A stretch of DNA of 64,000 nucleotides from positions 3,005,282 through 3,069,281 of the forward strand of contig OZ252046.1 of the NCBI GenBank assembly GCA_965247895.1, written 5' to 3'. The notes beneath the pieces were generated by a model. The model made no database searches and was not told where the DNA came from. It saw nothing but the letters and a program-made list of their open reading frames with translations. The translations under genes and the position numbers were made by a program. Shown piece after piece: positions 29,629 through 38,048 of the stretch (within the stretch, counting starts at the first letter, position 1; each line of letters starts with the position of its first letter). This DNA is from Dehalococcoidia bacterium. Lineage in GTDB: Bacteria > Chloroflexota > Dehalococcoidia > UBA2979.

Positions 29629-30062
29629 TCATCCTCGACGCATACGCGGTGCTGGCGTTGCTGAAGGACGAGCACGCGGCGCTAGAGGTCCAGGAGTTGA
29701 TCGAGCGCGACGAAGAGGCGGCGCTGACGCTGCTCGGCATCGCCGAGGTGCTCGACCGTCTCGTGCGCGGCGCCGGCATCGACGGGGAGCAGGCGTGGCT
29801 CGACCTCGCACAACTGGGGCTGGCTGCCCCGCCGGCGCTTGATGCTCAGCTGGCGGCGAGAGCGGGACTGCTGCGCGCGCACCACTACGACCGTCGCACT
29901 CGCGCGATCAGCCTCGCGGACTGCGTGGCCGCCGAGACGGCGCGCCGCCTGGATGCACCACTCGCCACAGCCGATCCCCCGCTCCTCGAGACCTGCGAGG
30001 CGGAAGGAATCGCGGTCATCGCACTTCCCGACAGCCAGGGCGCAGTCTGGCCCCGCTCCTAG
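29625..30062 (+). CDS. vapC: PIN-domain toxin (VapC-like)
   Basis: It contains IILDAY (N-terminal Asp), LADCVAAETA and ATAD. It is coupled to the antitoxin by a 4-nt overlap. Confidence 0.8.
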   Translation: MIILDAYAVLALLKDEHAALEVQELIERDEEAALTLLGIAEVLDRLVRGAGIDGEQAWLDLAQLGLAAPPALDAQLAARAGLLRAHHYDRRTRAISLADCVAAETARRLDAPLATADPPLLETCEAEGIAVIALPDSQGAVWPRS

Positions 30063-30142
30063 CGGAAGGGCCGTTTCGGTAGCGCCGGTTGCGATGCCCC
30101 CGCCGGATCCGGGCAACAGACCCGGTGGTGCGATCGCGTCGA

Positions 30143-30172
30143 TTGACGATTACGCCGCGGCGGCCCTATCGT
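30143..30172 (+). promoter_or_regulatory. Candidate sigma-70-type promoter: TTGACG, 18-nt spacer, TATCGT
   Basis: The -35 is at 30143-30148 and the -10 at 30167-30172. An AAGGAGG follows 12 nt downstream. Confidence 0.35.
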
Positions 30173-30200
30173 CCAAGGCAAGGAAGGAGGTGATGCCCAC

Positions 30201-30272
30201 ATGGATGATGAACGTAGTCACGAGGTCGAGGCGAGCTTGTGGGACATCTCCGAGGAGGTGTCGGCGGGCTAA
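30201..30272 (+). CDS. Candidate 23-aa acidic micro-ORF (MDDERSHEVEASLWDISEEVSAG)
   Basis: A strong SD (AAGGAGG, 30184-30190) lies 10 nt upstream. A terminator hairpin lies 26 nt downstream. An alternative frame from ATG 30193 has only 2-nt SD spacing. Confidence 0.3.
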   Translation: MDDERSHEVEASLWDISEEVSAG

Positions 30273-30297
30273 CCTCTGCCCGTGAGACTGAACGGAA

Positions 30298-30320
30298 CAC
30301 CCCGGCCACTGGCCGGGGTG
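30298..30320 (+). terminator. 10-bp perfect GC-rich hairpin (CACCCCGGCC, loop ACT, GGCCGGGGTG) followed by TTCT
   Basis: Read directly. It lies 22 nt upstream of the birA ATG. Confidence 0.5.
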
Positions 30321-30342
30321 TTCTGCGTCCGGAGGTCCGCCG

Positions 30343-31170
30343 ATGGCGGCTGCCGCAGACTTCGATCACGAGCGCTACGCAGCCCTGAGGGGCGGCGGGC
30401 GCCTCGGCGCGCGCGTGCACGCCGTTGCGCGCACGACCTCCACCATGGACGACGCGCGCGCGGGCGCGGACCGGCGCGGCGCCGCAGGCTGCGGTGACGC
30501 CTACGTCGCGGGCGAGCAGACGGCCGGCCGAGGGCGTTTCGGCCGTCGCTGGGTCGCCACGCCGGGGGCGGCATTGCTCGTCACCTTCCACCTCTGCCCC
30601 GCGGCCGGCCCGCACACCCCGCTCCTCAGCGCCGCGGGAGGCCTCGCCACTGCCGAGGCGGTCGAGGCTGCCTGCGGCCTCGACGTCTCGCTGAAGTGGC
30701 CGAACGACGTGCTCGCGGACGGCCGCAAGCTGTCCGGCGTGCTGGCCGACGCGCGGCACGGGCCGGGTGGAAGCGTCGAGGTCTTCCTCGGCATCGGCGT
30801 CAACCTGCGGGAGGCGGCGACGGCGGGCCTGCCGCCCGACGAGCGGGCGCGCGCGACGAGCATCGAGGGCGCGGGCGCGCCGCCGCCGGACCCGGAGATG
30901 CTGCTCGCGGAGCTCTCGCGCGCGCTCGAGCGGCGAGTCGGGCAGCTCGAGCGCGACCCGCCCGCCTTCCTCGACGACTGGCGCGACCGCCTCGAAACGA
31001 TCGGCCGCCGCGTCCAGCTCGCGCCCGCCGGCCCCGAGGCGGGTGAGGGCGAGGGTGCGGGCGTCGTCGAGGGCGTCGCGGTCGGCGTGACGCCGCTGGG
31101 CGAGCTGACGCTGCGGCTGGACGACGGCTCGTCGCGCAGCTTCGCCGCGGGCGATGTGACGACGTTGTGA
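30343..31170 (+). CDS. birA: Biotin--[acetyl-CoA-carboxylase] ligase
   Basis: It contains GEQTAGRGRFGRRW and LKWPNDVLADGRKLSGVL. The ATG follows GGAGG. I saw no N-terminal HTH. Confidence 0.9.
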   Translation: MAAAADFDHERYAALRGGGRLGARVHAVARTTSTMDDARAGADRRGAAGCGDAYVAGEQTAGRGRFGRRWVATPGAALLVTFHLCPAAGPHTPLLSAAGGLATAEAVEAACGLDVSLKWPNDVLADGRKLSGVLADARHGPGGSVEVFLGIGVNLREAATAGLPPDERARATSIEGAGAPPPDPEMLLAELSRALERRVGQLERDPPAFLDDWRDRLETIGRRVQLAPAGPEAGEGEGAGVVEGVAVGVTPLGELTLRLDDGSSRSFAAGDVTTL

Positions 31171-31205
31171 GCGCCGCGACGGCAGCGGCCACGTCACCTC
31201 GACGC

Positions 31206-31234
31206 TTGCCCTCCCGGGGCAGGGCTTCTACGAT
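31206..31234 (+). promoter_or_regulatory. Candidate his operon promoter: TTGCCC, 17-nt spacer, TACGAT
   Basis: The -10 ends 7 nt before the ATG at 31242. That ATG has no SD, which fits a leaderless transcript. Confidence 0.35.
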
Positions 31235-31241
31235 CGCCGTG

Positions 31242-31337
31242 ATGCGTAGATACGAGATCAGCGGCGTGCGGGCGCACGGTCATGCCCATGCTCATCGGGG
31301 CGAGGAGTCGCCGCCGCGAAGCCGCTTGCATCGATAG
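31242..31337 (+). CDS. Candidate His-rich leader peptide (MRRYEISGVRAHGHAHAHRGEESPPRSRLHR)
   Basis: Four His codons sit at alternating positions 12-18, and three of them are CAT. The ORF lies between birA and hisZ and is followed by a terminator. Confidence 0.4.
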   Translation: MRRYEISGVRAHGHAHAHRGEESPPRSRLHR

Positions 31338-31360
31338 CCGGAACGCAGATGCCAGTGACG

Positions 31361-31397
31361 CGCCGCGGCGGATCTCCCGTCGCGGCGTTTCTGTGTG
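31361..31397 (+). terminator. Intrinsic terminator/attenuator: 11-bp GC stem (one G-U pair), loop ATCTC, then TTTCTGTGTG
   Basis: CGCCGCGGCGG (31361-31371) pairs with CCGTCGCGGCG (31377-31387). The upstream CCGCCGCG (31311-31318) can pair with 31364-31371 as an alternative structure. Confidence 0.5.
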
Positions 31398-31472
31398 ACC
31401 ACAGATCGGCGTCGCCGTCCCGGCCCCCCACGAGACCGACCCACGAGCGCAGGCGTTGAGAGTGAGACGAGC

Positions 31473-32501
31473 GTGACCGAGACCGATACAGAAACCAGCA
31501 ACCCCGCCGCGAGCCGAGCCGAGAGCCTCCGCAGCCGCGGCATGCACGATCTGGGGCCGGACGAGATGCGGCGCTTCCGAGGCGTCGAGGCGCGATTCCT
31601 CGAGGTGACGGCGGCCGCCGGGTACCGCGAGATCCGCACGCCGACCGTCGAGCCGTTGCACCTCTTCACCGGCGCGGGCGCGCTCTCGCCGCAACTGCTC
31701 GACCGCGTCTACTCGTTCCTCGACTGGGACGGGTGGAGCGGTGAGCGGATGGTGCTGCGGCCGGACAGCACCCTGCCGGCGGTGCGCTGGTTCGAGAGCC
31801 GGGCCGACGCGCCCGAGGGCGAGCCGGCGCGCCTCAGCTACGTCCAGCCGGTCTACCGCTTCGACGCCGGCGATGGCGAGCGCGAGCTGTGGCAGTGCGG
31901 CGTCGAACTGTTCGGCCTCGCCGCTCCCGAGGGCGACGTCGAGCTGCTCGGCCTCGCGGGAGAGCTGCTGAGCGCCCTCGGACTCGCCGATCTGCGCTTC
32001 GAGATCGCGCACGCCGGACTGCTGCGCGCCGCGCTGGCGGCGACCGGGCTGGACGAGACCGAGCAGATCGAGGCCCTCGACCGGGTGATCGAGGGCGGCG
32101 AAGTCGCCGTCGAGGCCGTCGCCGGCGAGCTGTCGGCGGCCAGCCCGGAGCGGGCGAGCGGCCTGCGCCTGCTGCTGGAGATCAGCGGGGGGAGCGAGGG
32201 CTACCTCGACAACGTCGCGGCGGCGCTGCCGGAGGCCGCGCAGCCGATCGCGGAGCTGCGCGCGGCCGTGCAGATGCTGGAGGCGGCAGGGGTCGCCTTC
32301 GATCTCGCGCCCGCCGCGGGCGGCAGCTTCGAGTACTACACCGGCCTCACCTTCCGCGTCTTCGCGGGCGCGGAGGCCTGCCTGCTGGGAGGCCGCTACG
32401 ACGGCATGGCGGAGGCCGTCGGTGGGCGCGCCGCGCCCGCCTCGGGCTTTGCCGCCGACCTGCTGCGGCTCGCCGCGCTCTCGCCGGAGGCGGCGTCGTG
32501 A
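31473..32501 (+). CDS. hisZ: ATP phosphoribosyltransferase regulatory subunit HisZ
   Basis: Class-II aaRS-like (RGMHDLGPDEMRRF...YREIRTPTVE...). The start is uncertain. GTG 31473 lies downstream of the attenuator, while the ORF-limit GTG 31395 lies inside the terminator T-run. Confidence 0.8.
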   Translation: MTETDTETSNPAASRAESLRSRGMHDLGPDEMRRFRGVEARFLEVTAAAGYREIRTPTVEPLHLFTGAGALSPQLLDRVYSFLDWDGWSGERMVLRPDSTLPAVRWFESRADAPEGEPARLSYVQPVYRFDAGDGERELWQCGVELFGLAAPEGDVELLGLAGELLSALGLADLRFEIAHAGLLRAALAATGLDETEQIEALDRVIEGGEVAVEAVAGELSAASPERASGLRLLLEISGGSEGYLDNVAAALPEAAQPIAELRAAVQMLEAAGVAFDLAPAAGGSFEYYTGLTFRVFAGAEACLLGGRYDGMAEAVGGRAAPASGFAADLLRLAALSPEAAS

Positions 32502-33931
32502 TCCGCGTCGCGCTGCCTCGAGGCGACCTGCGCGTGCCGCTCGCCGGACGCCTGCGCGCGGCCGGCTTCGCCGTCGAGGGCTACGAGAGCGGATCGCGTG
32601 CCTACCGCTTCCCGGTCGAAGGCCGGCCGGGCGTGCTGGTGCGCGTCTTCGCGGAGCAGGACATCCCGATCCAGGTCGCCCTCGGCCAGTACGACCTCGG
32701 CATCACCAGCCGCACCTGGGTGGACGAGCTGCTGGCTCGCTACCCGCTCGACTCGCTCGTGCCGCTGCGTCCGCTCGACCTCGGAGGCGAGCGGCTGGTG
32801 CTGGCCGCGCCCGAGGGCGTCACGCTCGGCCAGCTCGCGGCGACGCCGGGCGTGCGCGTGACGACCTCGCACCCGAACCAGACGACGCGCTGCCTCAACT
32901 ACCTGCGCGTCCCGGACTACCGTGTGATCGAGGTCTGGGGACAGCCCGCGGCCTGGCCGCCCGAGGATGCCGACGCCGCCGTGCTGAGCGTGCCGCTGGA
33001 TGACGCGGCAGCCGACGCCGCTCTCGCCCGCGAGGGCCTGCGCATCGTCGCCGAAGTGCAACGCGGGTCCGCCACGCTCGTGGCGAACCGCGAAGCCCTC
33101 GCGAGCCGCGGGCTCGCCGAGGCGCTGGAGCCGCTGCTCGCGTTGCCCGCGGGCGCCGCCGGAGGGCCGCGCGCGCTCCCGCGCCGCAACGGCCGCCGTG
33201 ACGGCGCCGACGGGCTCGCCGCGCGGCGCTCGGACGGCGATCGAGCTGTCTTCCGCCTCGCGCTGCCGGACGGGCACGCGCAGCCGCACACCGTCGAGGC
33301 GCTCGCCTCCGCCGGGCTGCGCTTCGAGGGCTATGGCGACGGCGCGACGGACCGCCGTCCGCGTACCGCCGTCGAGGGCCTCGAGGTGAAGGTGATCCGC
33401 CCGCAGGACATGCCGCAGGCGGTCGCGCTCGGCTGCTTCGACCTCGCGCTGACGGGGCGCGACTGGCTGGCGGCGCACCTCGCGGCCTTCCCGCTCTCCC
33501 CGGTCGCGGAGCTGTGCGACCTGCGCCGCAGCCGCTACCGCCTCGGTGCGGTCGTGCCGGAGGCCGTGCCCGCCGAGACGATCGCCGAGGCGATAGCCTG
33601 GTGGCGGCGGGATGACCCGGAGCGGCCGATTCGCGTCGCCTCGGAGTACGTCTCGCTGGCCGATCACTACGCGCGCGAGCGGCGCCTCGGGCGCTACCAG
33701 GTGCTGCCGATCTCCGGGGCGTCGGAGGGCTTCGTGCCCGACGACGCGGAGATCCTGATCGAGGGCACGGAGACCGGCTCCACCCTGCGCGCCAACCGGC
33801 TCCGTATGATCGACGTCATCATGGAGTCGACGAACTGCGCGATCGGATCGACGGTGCGCCCGCCGGGCGCGCGCGGCGATCTGCGCGACGACCTGGTCGA
33901 GCGGCTGCGGACGGGCGCCGCGGAGGTCTGA
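32498..33931 (+). CDS. hisG: ATP phosphoribosyltransferase HisG, tandem-duplicated (two short-HisG-like halves fused, 477 aa)
   Basis: The GTG overlaps the hisZ stop (GTGA). Half 1 reads IRVALPRGDL...IQVALGQYDLGITS. Half 2 reads FRLALPDGH...QAVALGCFDLALTG and retains EGTETGSTLRANRL. Confidence 0.8.
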   Translation: MIRVALPRGDLRVPLAGRLRAAGFAVEGYESGSRAYRFPVEGRPGVLVRVFAEQDIPIQVALGQYDLGITSRTWVDELLARYPLDSLVPLRPLDLGGERLVLAAPEGVTLGQLAATPGVRVTTSHPNQTTRCLNYLRVPDYRVIEVWGQPAAWPPEDADAAVLSVPLDDAAADAALAREGLRIVAEVQRGSATLVANREALASRGLAEALEPLLALPAGAAGGPRALPRRNGRRDGADGLAARRSDGDRAVFRLALPDGHAQPHTVEALASAGLRFEGYGDGATDRRPRTAVEGLEVKVIRPQDMPQAVALGCFDLALTGRDWLAAHLAAFPLSPVAELCDLRRSRYRLGAVVPEAVPAETIAEAIAWWRRDDPERPIRVASEYVSLADHYARERRLGRYQVLPISGASEGFVPDDAEILIEGTETGSTLRANRLRMIDVIMESTNCAIGSTVRPPGARGDLRDDLVERLRTGAAEV

Positions 33932-33932
33932 C

Positions 33933-34685
33933 GTGCCCTCACTCGGATCGCACCTCGCCAGCGCCTACGGGCTGGCCGACCGCCTCGGCCACCCGTTCAT
34001 CGACGCCGATCGCGGGGCCTACTACATGGGCTCGACGGCGCCGGACATCCGCGTGCTGCTGCGGGTGGACCGCCGCCTCACGCACTTCTTCGAGCTCGAC
34101 GAGTTCGCGAAGCAGGACTCGGTGGCGCGCATGTTCGAGGAGCACCCGGACCTGCAGGACCTCGCCGGCCTCAACGAGAGCACGCGCGCCTTCGTCGCCG
34201 GCTACGTCACGCACCTGCTGATGGACGAGCACTACATCCAGAGCGTCTACCGCCGCTTCTTCGGCGAGCGCTCGTCGCTCGGCGGCGATCTGCGCGCCAA
34301 CATCCTCGACCGCGCGCTGCAGTACGAGATGAACCGTCGCGAGCTGGAGGACGACGCCGCGCTCGCGGAGATTCGCACCGCCATCGACGCGACCGAGGCG
34401 GCGATCGCGGTCGGCTTCATCGAGTCGCAGCTGTGGCCGGAATGGCGCGACTTCACGCGCGGGATCACCTACCAGCGCCCGGACTGGGACCGCTTTCCTC
34501 GGGTGATGCAGATCCACCTGCGGCGCGGCGGCTTCAGCGACGAGGAGATCGAGCGCGTCGCGGAGAACCCGGGCGGGCTGATCCAGGAATCGCTCTCACA
34601 CGTCAGTGAGGACGAGGTCGCACGCTACCTCGAGGAGGCGACCGAGCTGGCCGCCGAGCGCCTCCGCGAATATCTGCCCCGCTGA
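33933..34685 (+). CDS. Hypothetical protein, possibly a zinc-dependent phospholipase C-like / metal hydrolase fold
   Basis: The GTG follows GGAGG and sits 1 nt after the hisG stop. Its stop overlaps the hisD ATG. The N-terminus GSHLA....GSTAPDI resembles that family only loosely. Confidence 0.6.
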   Translation: MPSLGSHLASAYGLADRLGHPFIDADRGAYYMGSTAPDIRVLLRVDRRLTHFFELDEFAKQDSVARMFEEHPDLQDLAGLNESTRAFVAGYVTHLLMDEHYIQSVYRRFFGERSSLGGDLRANILDRALQYEMNRRELEDDAALAEIRTAIDATEAAIAVGFIESQLWPEWRDFTRGITYQRPDWDRFPRVMQIHLRRGGFSDEEIERVAENPGGLIQESLSHVSEDEVARYLEEATELAAERLREYLPR

Positions 34686-36028
34686 TGAGCGCCGCCAGGC
34701 CCGCGCTGCGCATCGTCGAGGGCGCCGAGGCGGCCCGCGCCAGCGTGCTGCGGCGCGAGCCGCTCGGCGATCCGGCGCTGCCGCCGCCCGTGCGCGCCTC
34801 GATCCGCGAGACCTTCGGCGCCGACCTCAGCGCCTCCGAGGTGGTCGCGCGGATCATCGCGAGCGTGCGCGCCGAGGGCGACGCGGCCGTGCGTGCCTTC
34901 TCACAGCGCTTCGACGGCTCGGCGGACGCGCCGTTCGAGGTGACCCGCGAGGAGATCGAGGCCGCGTTCGCGGAGACGCCGGCCGAGTTGCTCGACTCGC
35001 TGCGCTTCGCCGCCGATCGTGTGCAGCGCTACCACGAGCGCCAGCTCGCGCACGGGCCGCGCTCCTTCCTCGAGGACGGGGTGGGGATGACCGTGCAGCC
35101 GATCGCGCGGGCGGGCATCTACATGACCGGCAGCGTCGCGGTGCTGCCCTCGTCGGTGCTGCACACGGCGCTGCCCGCGCTCGTCGCCGGCGTGCCGGAG
35201 CGGATCGGCGTCTCGGCCGCGCGCGAGGACGGCAGCGTGCACCCGCTGAAGCTGGTCGCCGCGGAGCTGGCCGGCGTGCAGCGCGTCTTCCGCGCCTCGG
35301 GCGCGCAGGCGATCGCGGCGCTGGCGCTCGGCACGGAGACGATCCCGCGCGTCGACAAGATCTTCGGCCCCGGCAACGTCTTCGTGACGCTCGCCAAGCA
35401 GCAGCTCTTCGGCGAGGTCGGCATCGACGCGCTCTACGGCCCCACCGAGACGCTCGTGCTCGCCGACGACGAGGCCGCGCCCGATCTCTGCGCCGCCGAC
35501 CTGCTGGCGCAGGCGGAGCACGACACCCTCGCCAGGCCGGTGCTGATCACCACCTCGCGCGCCCACGCCGAGGCGGTGCAGGCCGAGGTCGAGCGCCAGC
35601 TCGGCGACCTCGAGCGCGGCGCGATCGCGCGCGCGGCCGTCGAGGGCGGCGGGGCGGTCGTCGCGGACGGCCTCGACGAGGCGGTCGCGCTCGCCAACGA
35701 GTTCGCGCCGGAGCACCTCTGCCTGCTGACGCGCGAGCCGGAGCGGATCGCGCCGCTCATCACCCAGGCGGGTGGCGTCTTCGTCGGCGATCACTCGCCC
35801 GAGGTGCTCGGCGACTACGTCGCGGGGCCGAGCCATGTCATGCCGACGGGCGGATCGGCGCGCTACGCCTCGCCGCTCTCGGTGCTGGACTTCCTCAGGA
35901 TCAGCTCCGTGATCGCCTTGCCGGAGGACGCCCTCGCGGAGTTGGGCCCGCACGCCGCGCGGCTCGCCCGCGCCGAGGGCCTGACCGGCCACGCACGCTC
36001 GATCGAGCGCAGGCTGGAGGGACTGTGA
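34685..36028 (+). CDS. hisD: Histidinol dehydrogenase
   Basis: It contains GPGNVFVTLAKQQLFGEVGIDALYGPTE and LLAQAEHD. Confidence 0.95.
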   Translation: MSAARPALRIVEGAEAARASVLRREPLGDPALPPPVRASIRETFGADLSASEVVARIIASVRAEGDAAVRAFSQRFDGSADAPFEVTREEIEAAFAETPAELLDSLRFAADRVQRYHERQLAHGPRSFLEDGVGMTVQPIARAGIYMTGSVAVLPSSVLHTALPALVAGVPERIGVSAAREDGSVHPLKLVAAELAGVQRVFRASGAQAIAALALGTETIPRVDKIFGPGNVFVTLAKQQLFGEVGIDALYGPTETLVLADDEAAPDLCAADLLAQAEHDTLARPVLITTSRAHAEAVQAEVERQLGDLERGAIARAAVEGGGAVVADGLDEAVALANEFAPEHLCLLTREPERIAPLITQAGGVFVGDHSPEVLGDYVAGPSHVMPTGGSARYASPLSVLDFLRISSVIALPEDALAELGPHAARLARAEGLTGHARSIERRLEGL

Positions 36029-37188
36029 TGGCCGACACGCAGAGTTTCGACCTCGAGGCGGCGCAGCGTCCGCCGCTGCGTTCGCTGCGCGGCTACGAGC
36101 CGATCGAACCCCCGGAGCAGGTCGCCGCCCGCTACGGCGTCGCGCCGGAGACGATCGTCAAGCTCGACGGCAACGAGAACCCGTACGGCCCTGCGCCGCG
36201 CGCCCTCGAGGCGCTGGCGGGCGGCTACGCGGCGCACCGCTACCCGGACCCGGAGCAGCGGCGCCTCCGCGAGGCCCTCGCGGCGCGCCACGGCGTGCCG
36301 CCCGAGTGCATCGTCGCGGGCGCGGGCGCGGACGAGATCATCGACCTCGTGTTCCGCATCTTCATCGACGCGGGCGACCGCGTCGTGATCGCCTCGCCGA
36401 CGTTCGGGATGTACTCCTTCGGCGCGGAAGTCGCGGGCGCGCAGCTCGTCGACGTGCCGAGGCGCGCCGACTGGTCGGCGGACCTCGACGCGCTGGCCGC
36501 GGCCTGCGAGGGCGCAAAGGCAGTGTTCCTGCCCTCGCCCAACAACCCGACGGGCGGACTGCTGCCCCCCGACGCCGCGGAGCGCCTGCGCGCGAGCGGC
36601 GCGATCGTCGTCATTGACGAGGCCTACGTGGAGTTCGCGAGCGGCCACGAGGGCGTGCACAGCGGACCGCCGACCCTCGTGGGCGACGCGGCGAGGGAGG
36701 GCGGTGCGCCGCTGATCGTGCTGCGCACGTTCAGCAAGTGGGCCGGGCTCGCAGGGCTGCGGGTCGGCTACGGCGTCATGCCGGCCTCGGTGGCCGCGCT
36801 GCTGATGGCCTGCAAGCAGCCGTACGGCGTCAGCACCGCCGCCGAGGCGGCCGCGCTCGCCTCCCTCGAAGACACGCTGCTGCTCGATGAGCGCGCCTGC
36901 GAGATCGCCGGGGAGCGCGATCGGCTGGCGGGCGAGTTGCGGGCGGGCGGCTGGCTGGAGCCGGTGCCCTCGCAGGCGAACTTCCTGCTCTGCCGGCTCG
37001 CCTTCGGCAGCGGCGCGGCGCTGCGCGAGGCGCTCGCGCGTCGAGGCGTCTTCGTGCGCTTCTTCGGCCACGAGCGCCTGCGCGACCACGTCCGCATCTC
37101 GATCGGCACGCACGAGGACAGCGAGCGCCTGCTCGCGGCGCTCGCGGAAGCGCGGGCTGAGGTGGAAGGCGCGGGCGGGGGGCGGTAA
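36028..37188 (+). CDS. hisC: Histidinol-phosphate aminotransferase
   Basis: It contains KLDGNENPYGP and RTFSKWAGLAGLRVGY (PLP lysine). The ATG overlaps the hisD TGA. Confidence 0.9.
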   Translation: MADTQSFDLEAAQRPPLRSLRGYEPIEPPEQVAARYGVAPETIVKLDGNENPYGPAPRALEALAGGYAAHRYPDPEQRRLREALAARHGVPPECIVAGAGADEIIDLVFRIFIDAGDRVVIASPTFGMYSFGAEVAGAQLVDVPRRADWSADLDALAAACEGAKAVFLPSPNNPTGGLLPPDAAERLRASGAIVVIDEAYVEFASGHEGVHSGPPTLVGDAAREGGAPLIVLRTFSKWAGLAGLRVGYGVMPASVAALLMACKQPYGVSTAAEAAALASLEDTLLLDERACEIAGERDRLAGELRAGGWLEPVPSQANFLLCRLAFGSGAALREALARRGVFVRFFGHERLRDHVRISIGTHEDSERLLAALAEARAEVEGAGGGR

Positions 37189-37206
37189 CAGCGTCAGTCA
37201 ATTTGC

Positions 37207-37247
37207 GTCAACTTGGTTTGTTGGAGTGTCAGTAGACACAAGTTGAC
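37207..37247. promoter_or_regulatory. 9-bp inverted repeat GTCAACTTG, 23-nt spacer, CAAGTTGAC in the AT-richer hisC-hisB gap
   Basis: Read directly. It is a candidate operator and/or internal promoter region. Confidence 0.35.
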
Positions 37248-37292
37248 CCAAGATCGTACTTTGGAAGGGCGCACCGGGAGGGCGGCCCCACC

Positions 37293-38048
37293 GTGGAGAT
37301 CAAGAGCGAGACCTATTTGCGCGTGCGCGAGGCGTACGAGTCGGGCGAGCTCGACGTGCTCGGCGGGCAGACACGGCTCGCCGAGGAACTCGGCGTGACA
37401 CGCCAGGCGATCAACACCAACCTCAAGCGCGTCAAGCGCGAAGTCGCCAACGGCGAGCGCCGCGCCACCCTCGACCGTATCACTGCCGAGACCCGCATCC
37501 ACGTCGAACTCGACATCGACGGGACCGGCAACTCCGAGATCTCCACCGGGGTCGGCTTCTACGACCACATGCTGGAGGCGTTCGCGAAGCACGGCCGCTT
37601 CGACCTCGAGCTGCGCTGCGAGGGCGACCTGCACGTCGACGAGCACCACACGATGGAGGACTGCGCGCTGGCGCTCGGCGCCGCCTTCGACGAGGCGCTC
37701 GGCGACCGCAGCGGCATCGTGCGCATGGGCGACTCGACGGTGCCGCTCGACGAGGCGCTGATCCAAGCAGTCGTCGATTGCTCCGGCCGGCCCTACGCGG
37801 CGATCGACTTCGACTGGAACGGCGAGCGCATCGGGCAGGCCCCGACGGAGATGATCTCGCACGCCCTGCAATCGTTTTCGCAGGGCGCGCGCGTGGCGCT
37901 GCACGTGCGCCAGCTCGCCGGCGCCAACGACCACCACATCGCCGAGGCCGCCTTCAAGGCGCTCGGGCGCGCCCTCGATGCCGCGACGAGCCGCGATCCG
38001 CGGATCGCAGGCGAGACGCCGAGCACCAAGGGCACGCTGACAGCGTGA
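37293..38048 (+). CDS. hisB: Imidazoleglycerol-phosphate dehydratase with a ~50-aa N-terminal HTH-like extension
   Basis: The IGPD core runs from RRATLDRITAETRI and contains GFYDHMLEAF, DEHHTMED and NDHHIAEA. The extension contains QTRLAEELGVTRQAINTNLKR. The GTG lies 10 nt after GGGAGGG. Confidence 0.85.
   Translation: MEIKSETYLRVREAYESGELDVLGGQTRLAEELGVTRQAINTNLKRVKREVANGERRATLDRITAETRIHVELDIDGTGNSEISTGVGFYDHMLEAFAKHGRFDLELRCEGDLHVDEHHTMEDCALALGAAFDEALGDRSGIVRMGDSTVPLDEALIQAVVDCSGRPYAAIDFDWNGERIGQAPTEMISHALQSFSQGARVALHVRQLAGANDHHIAEAAFKALGRALDAATSRDPRIAGETPSTKGTLTA

Follow-up and report, generated by a model that had tools for sequence, protein, structure and literature searches.

Attenuators with a histidine leader peptide are established in gamma-proteobacteria (RF00514), and in many Gram-positive bacteria a T-box leader is the usual RNA control of his genes. 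Attenuation by a leader peptide requires tight coupling of transcription and translation, and to our knowledge it has been demonstrated by experiment in only a few phyla. In the enterobacterial hisL element (RF00514), a short His-rich leader ORF with a run of seven His and mutually exclusive antiterminator and terminator helices lie ahead of the first his biosynthesis gene, hisG, and stalling of the ribosome at the His codons permits readthrough.

In Firmicutes, His leader attenuators have been predicted by comparative genomics only: before hisZ and a hisS paralogue in the Bacillus cereus group, and in Peptostreptococcaceae and Erysipelotrichales (PMC2965389, PMC9413887). A survey published in 2005 gave no attenuators for his genes in Actinobacteria (PMC1262725). 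In Corynebacterium glutamicum, the leader peptide IlvL, encoded on a leaderless mRNA, drives transcription attenuation of ilvBNC by means of anti-antiterminator, antiterminator and terminator hairpins (PMC11857589). In mycobacteria, a ribosome stalled on the Cys codons of leaderless polycysteine sORFs remodels the downstream RNA (10.1101/834739).

Here we describe an element upstream of hisZ in a window, that is, a stretch of 64,000 nucleotides, from a Dehalococcoidia genome of 70% GC. Comparison with relatives and RNA folding make it very probable that this element is a ribosome-mediated, His-sensing leader-peptide transcription attenuator of the operon hisZ-hisG-orf-hisD-hisC(-hisB). It shares with hisL the short His-rich leader ORF, the exclusive helices, the place ahead of the first his biosynthesis gene and the logic of readthrough upon stalling. 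However, it belongs to a different phylum and does not match hisL in sequence or structure; its start codon stands right behind the -10 box without a Shine-Dalgarno (SD) sequence, its His codons form the pattern HxHxHxH, and its first gene is hisZ. With the Firmicutes leaders it has in common a His-rich leader peptide, a terminator and an antiterminator before hisZ or a his operon, but those leaders have 3-5 consecutive His codons, occur in low-GC genomes and are unrelated in sequence, and a leaderless start is not described in the papers on them. The putatively leaderless leader peptide and the set of three hairpins recall ilvBNC of C. glutamicum, which senses branched-chain amino acids rather than histidine and was tested by mutagenesis in an actinobacterium. 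The mycobacterial sORFs are leaderless, as is predicted here, and short, with clustered codons for the amino acid of the controlled pathway, but that amino acid is Cys rather than His, and the output is translational, the unmasking of a downstream ribosome-binding site with no terminator.

A permissive Rfam cmscan of positions 30000-33000 (E up to 10) showed no match to the His_leader family RF00514, no T-box and nothing else over the leader; elsewhere in this segment there were only sub-threshold chance matches. We found no report of such a His attenuator for Chloroflexota, which agrees with a remark in an earlier reading of the DNA letters (the sequence-only reading) that the mechanism is not established for such lineages. 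The element is a new sequence family, while its mechanism and leaderless leader ORFs are already known elsewhere; it works like RF00514 without being a member of it.

The presumed his operon and its surroundings

The leader lies between a birA-like gene and hisZ. The genes that follow hisZ (32498-38048) overlap or abut, from which we presume that they are co-transcribed with it.

30343-31170: birA-like gene, upstream of the leader
31473-32501, + strand: hisZ, ATP phosphoribosyltransferase regulatory subunit, predicted first regulated gene, putative GTG start (PF13393, TIGR00443)
32498-33931, + strand: hisG, 477 aa, whose GTG overlaps the hisZ stop codon (GTGA)
33933-34685, + strand: unknown ORF between hisG and hisD
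34685-36028, + strand: hisD
36025/36028-37188, + strand: hisC
37293-38048, + strand: hisB, after a 104-nt gap

Relatives of HisZ align from residues 1-4. The Pfam HisG model matches two stretches of the hisG ORF, the better one in its second half. In hisB, the IGPD domain covers residues 85-228 and is preceded by an N-terminal extension of about 80 residues with weak matches of helix-turn-helix type (YdaS_toxin, 5.6e-7, just under the cut-off, and Cro). ORFs on the minus strand over the region had no family matches and were taken as spurious. Just upstream of birA, positions 30227-30329 match the Rfam model of the Pseudomonas rnk leader below threshold, scoring 27.7 bits where the gathering score is 55 (E = 0.07). 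This stretch ends in a perfect GC hairpin followed by UUCU, and ahead of it, at 30143-30172, lies TTGACG-18-TATCGT, the sole match to the promoter consensus within 14 kb.

Promoter and histidine codons of the leader ORF

The region upstream of hisZ includes a putative promoter and a short ORF.

31206-31211, + strand: -35 box TTGCCC (read from the sequence and conserved in relatives)
31229-31234, + strand: -10 box TACGAT (read from the sequence), 17-nt spacer from the -35 box and 7 nt to ATG 31242
31242-31337, + strand: hisL-like leader ORF, MRRYEISGVRAHGHAHAHRGEESPPRSRLHR, 31 codons plus TAG at 31335-31337 (read from the sequence; ORF present in all relatives, with the frame kept)
31275-31295, + strand: candidate regulatory His codons CAC 31275, CAT 31281, CAT 31287 and CAT 31293, at alternate positions (read from the sequence)

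The sequence-only reading had described TTGCCC, a 17-nt spacer and TACGAT, an ATG at 31242 that follows 7 nt later, and a 31-codon ORF with four alternating His codons, three of them CAT. All of these were found, and relatives keep the ATG close behind the promoter; a fifth His codon is CAT at 31329. His thus takes 5 of the 31 codons, and a stretch of 7 codons contains 4 of these. At the genomic His frequency of 2.2%, at least 4 His within 7 codons of a 31-codon ORF would arise with P ~1e-4. A longer ORF in the same frame from GTG 31167 was rejected, as there is no conservation among relatives upstream of the -35 box.

For comparison, 110 hisZ loci were collected. The closest belong to metagenome-assembled genomes (MAGs) of Dehalococcoidia or Chloroflexota, several of which come from sponges. 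At a HisZ identity of about 50% or more, nearly all loci have the leader layout, which gave about 49 distinct leaders from one Dehalococcoidia family; in the more distant loci among the 110 the layout was not found. The sole apparent exception is L005, from the close relative G012, which has the layout with a 4-nt insertion, GTGC, before the His codons that breaks the frame from the ATG. This insertion is either an assembly error or the mark of a decayed leader.

The promoter of the window matches the consensus at only 8 of 12 positions. Among the distinct family leaders, TTGNNN followed by TANNNT with a spacer of 16-18 nt (mostly 17) was present in 48 of 49, and the start codon lay 6-10 nt past the end of the -10 box, also in 48 of 49. 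Conservation sets in at the -35 box, also where the upstream neighbour gene differs. The short distance between -10 box and start codon leaves no room for an SD sequence, and an SD-like 4-mer upstream of the leader start was seen in only 3 of the 49. These comparisons establish the conservation of the promoter, and they would fit a leaderless leader mRNA with its 5' end at or near the start codon, 31242.

The reading frame was analyzed in the same leaders. Their ORFs have 16-35 codons with 2-9 in-frame His codons, mostly as HxHxH. The distance from the ATG to the antiterminator segment (region 2, below) takes 8 values between 54 and 81 nt, every one a multiple of 3, so that the frame is maintained across them. 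Across the family, His accounts for 18.4% of the leader codons against 2.2% in the genome, an 8-fold difference, and for 0.7% and 2.6% in the other two frames. CAT makes up 60% of the His codons in leaders against 13% genome-wide, and CAT and CAC replace each other between leaders. The genome has a single tRNA-His gene, with the anticodon GUG; under standard wobble rules such a tRNA reads CAT by a G:U pair, so CAT would be wobble-read here. The maintained frame, the His enrichment in that frame only and the favoured CAT are evidence that the leader ORF is translated.

These data also bear on the idea that no ribosome stalling is involved and that the region instead acts as a structured RNA with a protein or ligand as its partner, or encodes a small His-rich protein with a function of its own. 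Metal could be bound by the HxHxH motifs, the conserved helices, taken alone, could equally belong to a riboswitch-like element, and the absence of an Rfam match fits either version. However, the peptide is divergent apart from the His run and a Pro-Ser-Arg segment that is constrained at the RNA level, the His enrichment is confined to the frame, CAT and CAC are interchanged, and the frame from the ATG is kept over 8 different lengths. Moreover, no conserved structure resembling a ligand pocket was seen upstream of region 2, and the element is tied to hisZ wherever both coordinates are known. We consider this explanation very unlikely.

Three loci that probably represent one genus (L037, L042 and L062) have only two His codons, as HVH or HAH, together with a much longer region 2:3 helix, of 15-18 bp, in which several compensatory double changes distinguish L042 from L062.

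Predicted terminator and antiterminator helices of the leader

The 3' half of the leader contains segments that can pair in alternative ways, designated regions 1 to 4.

31296-31316, + strand: region 1:2 hairpin, CGGGGCGA with UCGCC-CCG, a predicted anti-antiterminator overlapping region 2 (folding, -12.6 kcal/mol)
31311-31318, + strand: region 2, CCGCCGCG, codons Pro-Pro-Arg, candidate 5' strand of the antiterminator (complementary to 31364-31371)
31323-31357, + strand: intervening hairpin, whose loop contains the leader stop codon (folding, -10.3 kcal/mol)
31360-31371, + strand: region 3, 5' arm of the putative terminator, including the candidate antiterminator 3' strand at 31364-31371 (terminator scan, alignment)
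31377-31388, + strand: region 4, 3' arm of the putative terminator (hairpin, -25.4 kcal/mol; alignment)
31388-31397, + strand: U-rich tail TTTCTGTGTG (read from the sequence, terminator scan)

The terminator scan gave 31360-31388 as the strongest terminator-like site in 14 kb, with 12 pairs (10 of them G-C), a loop of 5 and the tail TTCTGTGTGA. Its stem begins 23-24 nt past the leader stop codon; the GC stem with a tail that had been proposed 24 nt after the stop is therefore there, one pair longer than the 11 bp first counted. The proposed antiterminator also held: CCGCCGCG (31311-31318) is the exact complement of CGCGGCGG (31364-31371), and relatives show compensatory changes. In the suggested comparison of folding energies, the terminator of the window came to -25.4 kcal/mol and the 2:3 duplex to -20.8 kcal/mol.

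Region 1 (31296-31303) pairs with 31308-31316. This hairpin, which was absent from the list of the sequence-only reading, makes the layout fully classical in the clade of the window. Its sequence is identical throughout the subclade of the window and thus offers no covariation. The CATCG/CGATG stem of the intervening hairpin is retained throughout genus g1.

By itself, the window is only suggestive. Among 20000 dinucleotide-shuffled versions of the GC-rich ORF, 2632 (13%) also had the complementarity of the 8-mer, which is therefore not significant. The z-score of the minimum free energy (MFE) of the whole leader, -1.09, is unremarkable; this measure is blind to alternative folds. Given these chance levels, the case rests on conservation and covariation in relatives.

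All family leaders have region 2 as CCGYCGNG, with compensatory changes against region 3. The near-invariant family segment CCGTCGCG encodes Pro-Ser-Arg, and 45-64 nt past it the terminator 5' arm holds CGCGACGG. Counted from the first position of region 2, the stop codon begins exactly 24 nt downstream in 28 of 35 leaders. The region 2:3 helix was examined in an ungapped composite alignment of the region 2 and region 3 windows (A1). Its 9-bp core was 97.8% paired, a figure that is partly built in by anchoring A1 on complementary IUPAC motifs; the compensatory changes are not built in. Three pairs of the core are changed on both sides (G-C/C-G, U-A/C-G and C-G/U-A) with no C-A mismatch. The score of the core was reached by 0 of 500 shuffles and collapsed in shifted registers. 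In a MAFFT alignment of the entire 3' half of the leader (A2), 90.7% of the terminator cells were paired and 4 pairs covaried with double changes, and RNAalifold, run with no input structure, returned exactly the long-range 2:3 helix. The alignments show that both alternative helices are conserved with covariation. The check proposed in the sequence-only reading, conservation of the His codons and the hairpin in relatives, turned out positive for both, as did the search for compensatory changes in the antiterminator helix. Its view of the locus as a classical layout for ribosome-mediated attenuation is supported by the His codons, the hairpin, the frame and both helices, all conserved in relatives.

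Distribution of the leader family

A covariance model of the leader (R1) was used to determine the distribution of the element. In the genome of the window R1 gave one strong match, the hisZ leader. The next-best match, L112, is an ordinary gene-end terminator, and another match, L113, came at E = 0.88; neither represents a second leader. The L112 hairpin (L112:1551-1590; G000:C1 about 723145-723184) follows an unidentified 481-aa ORF and reads CACGCCGGGCGGCTGAGCCGCCCGGCG and then TTTCTGTGTC.

In the family, R1 found the leader in 66 of 99 genomes, including 42 of the 48 of high quality, and in 16 of 21 genera, counts that overstate the number of events since related genomes are not independent, and that come from a seed leaving out the clades with two His codons and those with no U tract. 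The full arrangement upstream of hisZ (promoter, adjacent ATG, in-frame His run, antiterminator segment and terminator) was likewise present in 16 of the 21 genera. There was one strong match per genome, with a second, weak one in G242 (E = 4.7e-4), and wherever both coordinates are known the match lies directly upstream of hisZ. R1 had no match in 144 genomes from 62 other families of the class or in 150 genomes sampled over the phylum, about 290 other Chloroflexota altogether; as R1 is blind to unrelated His leaders, this is the distribution of the sequence family and not of the mechanism.

The arrangement could be fortuitous, with a GC-rich hairpin that happens to follow a short ORF containing a few His codons; the 13% of ORF shuffles that reproduce the 8-mer would agree with this. 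The comparative data already contradict it, with the whole arrangement found in 66 of 99 family genomes together with covariation. In addition, a strict scan of the genome for a promoter, adjacent ATG and sORF gave only 4 matches, with an amino-acid run in the His leader alone; this pattern misses the ilvB leader described below, which has the -10 box GATACT. A chance combination is therefore barely credible.

Several clades of other genera (L044, L046, L057 and L058; L052, L054, L059, L063 and L064) have no U tract behind the 3:4 hairpin, while this hairpin, the His ORF and region 2 are retained. In the latter group of loci, the pairing of region 3 (CACGACGG) with region 2 (CCGTCGTG) is perfect, but that with region 4 has an A-C mismatch. 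Given such clades, the output may differ from intrinsic termination in part of the family. They favour a variant in which stalling of the ribosome still senses His-tRNA and the 3:4 hairpin acts through Rho, RNA stability or translation of hisZ. Perfect GC-rich stems that span 8 bp or more and run into TTT are scarce in the genome (43 on both strands); this and the translational action of the leaderless Cys sORFs of mycobacteria (10.1101/834739) point the same way. In the window, however, the hairpin is followed by UUUCUGUGUG, like the tail of an ordinary gene-end terminator of the same genome: the tail CGTTTCTGTGT is common to the hisZ attenuator and the L112 hairpin. In addition, about 85 nt separate the end of the hairpin from the hisZ start, and no pairing with the ribosome-binding region of hisZ was seen. 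We regard this variant as unlikely, and intrinsic termination as the preferred output for the window.

Folding with the ribosome at different positions

Folding of the leader was analyzed with the ribosome placed at different positions. At equilibrium, the full transcript with a masked ribosome folded into the terminator in every ribosome state (P(terminator) at least 0.96 in the window); this approach did not discriminate between states and was dropped. Since the terminator always wins at equilibrium, antitermination would depend wholly on the order of folding, as in a kinetic switch. Textbook attenuators are likewise kinetic switches.

The co-transcriptional state was represented by a transcript ending at region 3. 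With the ribosome footprint modelled as a fixed mask, stalls at the four clustered His codons gave P(2:3) of 0.79-0.98 in the window, whereas a ribosome placed on region 2 or at the stop codon gave 0.00. In the latter position the ribosome covers just about 2 nt of region 2, which then pairs back to region 1 (P = 0.61); the region 1:2 hairpin also forms in the free RNA, for which P(2:3) was 0.48. In the stalled-ribosome folds the intervening hairpin nests within the 2:3 helix. Over 35 leaders, stalling at the first or middle His codon gave a median P(2:3) of 0.99; the median was 0.00 once the ribosome was on region 2 and 0.003 when it had reached the stop codon. In silico, then, a stall at the His codons allows the antiterminator to form and a ribosome further on prevents it.

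Region 1 is absent from most other genera, and the free RNA there forms the antiterminator (median 0.99). In these genera termination would need active translation. The untranslated RNA of the textbook trp attenuator behaves differently from that of these family members.

From this layout we infer the 5' end, the stalling, the kinetics and the actual termination, as follows. Transcription would start at, or within about 3 nt of, ATG 31242, so that a 70S ribosome could load on the 5' end as the RNA emerges. When His-tRNA is scarce, the ribosome would stall on the four alternating His codons (31275-31295) and cover region 1. Region 2 (CCGCCGCG) would be left free and would pair with region 3 (CGCGGCGG) once that is made; with the 5' arm of the terminator occupied, RNA polymerase would continue into hisZ. 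When His-tRNA is ample, the ribosome would translate through region 2 and reach the stop codon at 31335. Region 2 would then lie within the ribosome or be re-captured by region 1 behind it, and regions 3 and 4 would form the 12-bp terminator, followed by UUUCUGUGUG, at which transcription would stop.

Leader ORFs upstream of ilvB and trpE

We also examined the regions upstream of other amino-acid biosynthesis genes. In the genome of the window, a leader ORF lies about 219 nt upstream of ilvB (L120:1282-1377; G000:C1 about 2814327-2814422, + strand). It follows TTGACG-N18-GATACT-N9-ATG, encodes MRATLPRPHLPRWRMTGSAPARLLVLLLVLR up to its stop codon, and has GC hairpins behind it. Of 30 ilvB loci in the family, 28 have an ORF of 17-48 codons ending in a Leu/Val run (for example LLVLVLVLT before the stop codon) 205-319 nt upstream of the gene; it is also present in the AT-rich genus g7, and in most loci it comes directly behind TTGAC(G/C/T)-N17/18-NAYAMT (mostly ATACT). 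The ilvB leader is probably a branched-chain amino-acid attenuator.

Upstream of trpE, the same genome has an uORF of 39 codons with a GTG start and the motif W-C-W, preceded by a GAGGAGG box (L150:2930-3050, minus strand; G000:C1 about 3390094-3390214). Among the family trpE loci, 26 of 30 have an uORF of 30-55 codons with WW, WWW or WxW (for example GRAWWWR or SGWWRWW), and in many of them an SD-like box lies upstream of it. This uORF probably encodes a Trp leader peptide. Together, the ilvB and trpE leaders in the family make control by leader peptides seem general in this lineage.

Discussion

The hisZ leader described here gives strong comparative support for attenuation in an uncultured family of Dehalococcoidia (Chloroflexota), with the start codon right behind the promoter. 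As a tentative extension, which we would not yet favour, the family might run a 'ribulon' of His, Leu/Val and Trp leader peptides in which the His and Leu/Val leaders are leaderless, mostly two-state and on by default. If this were true, termination would take place only when a ribosome loaded at the 5' end actively passes region 2. The switch would then report the capacity for leaderless 70S initiation as well as the charging of His-tRNA, and the preference for the wobble-read CAT would tune its sensitivity.

The leader offers a testable handle on gene regulation for a lineage that has no genetics, and it suggests that transcription-translation coupling and intrinsic termination are probably in use there. 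The alignment and covariance model could enter RNA family libraries, so that the region upstream of hisZ would be annotated rather than left blank.
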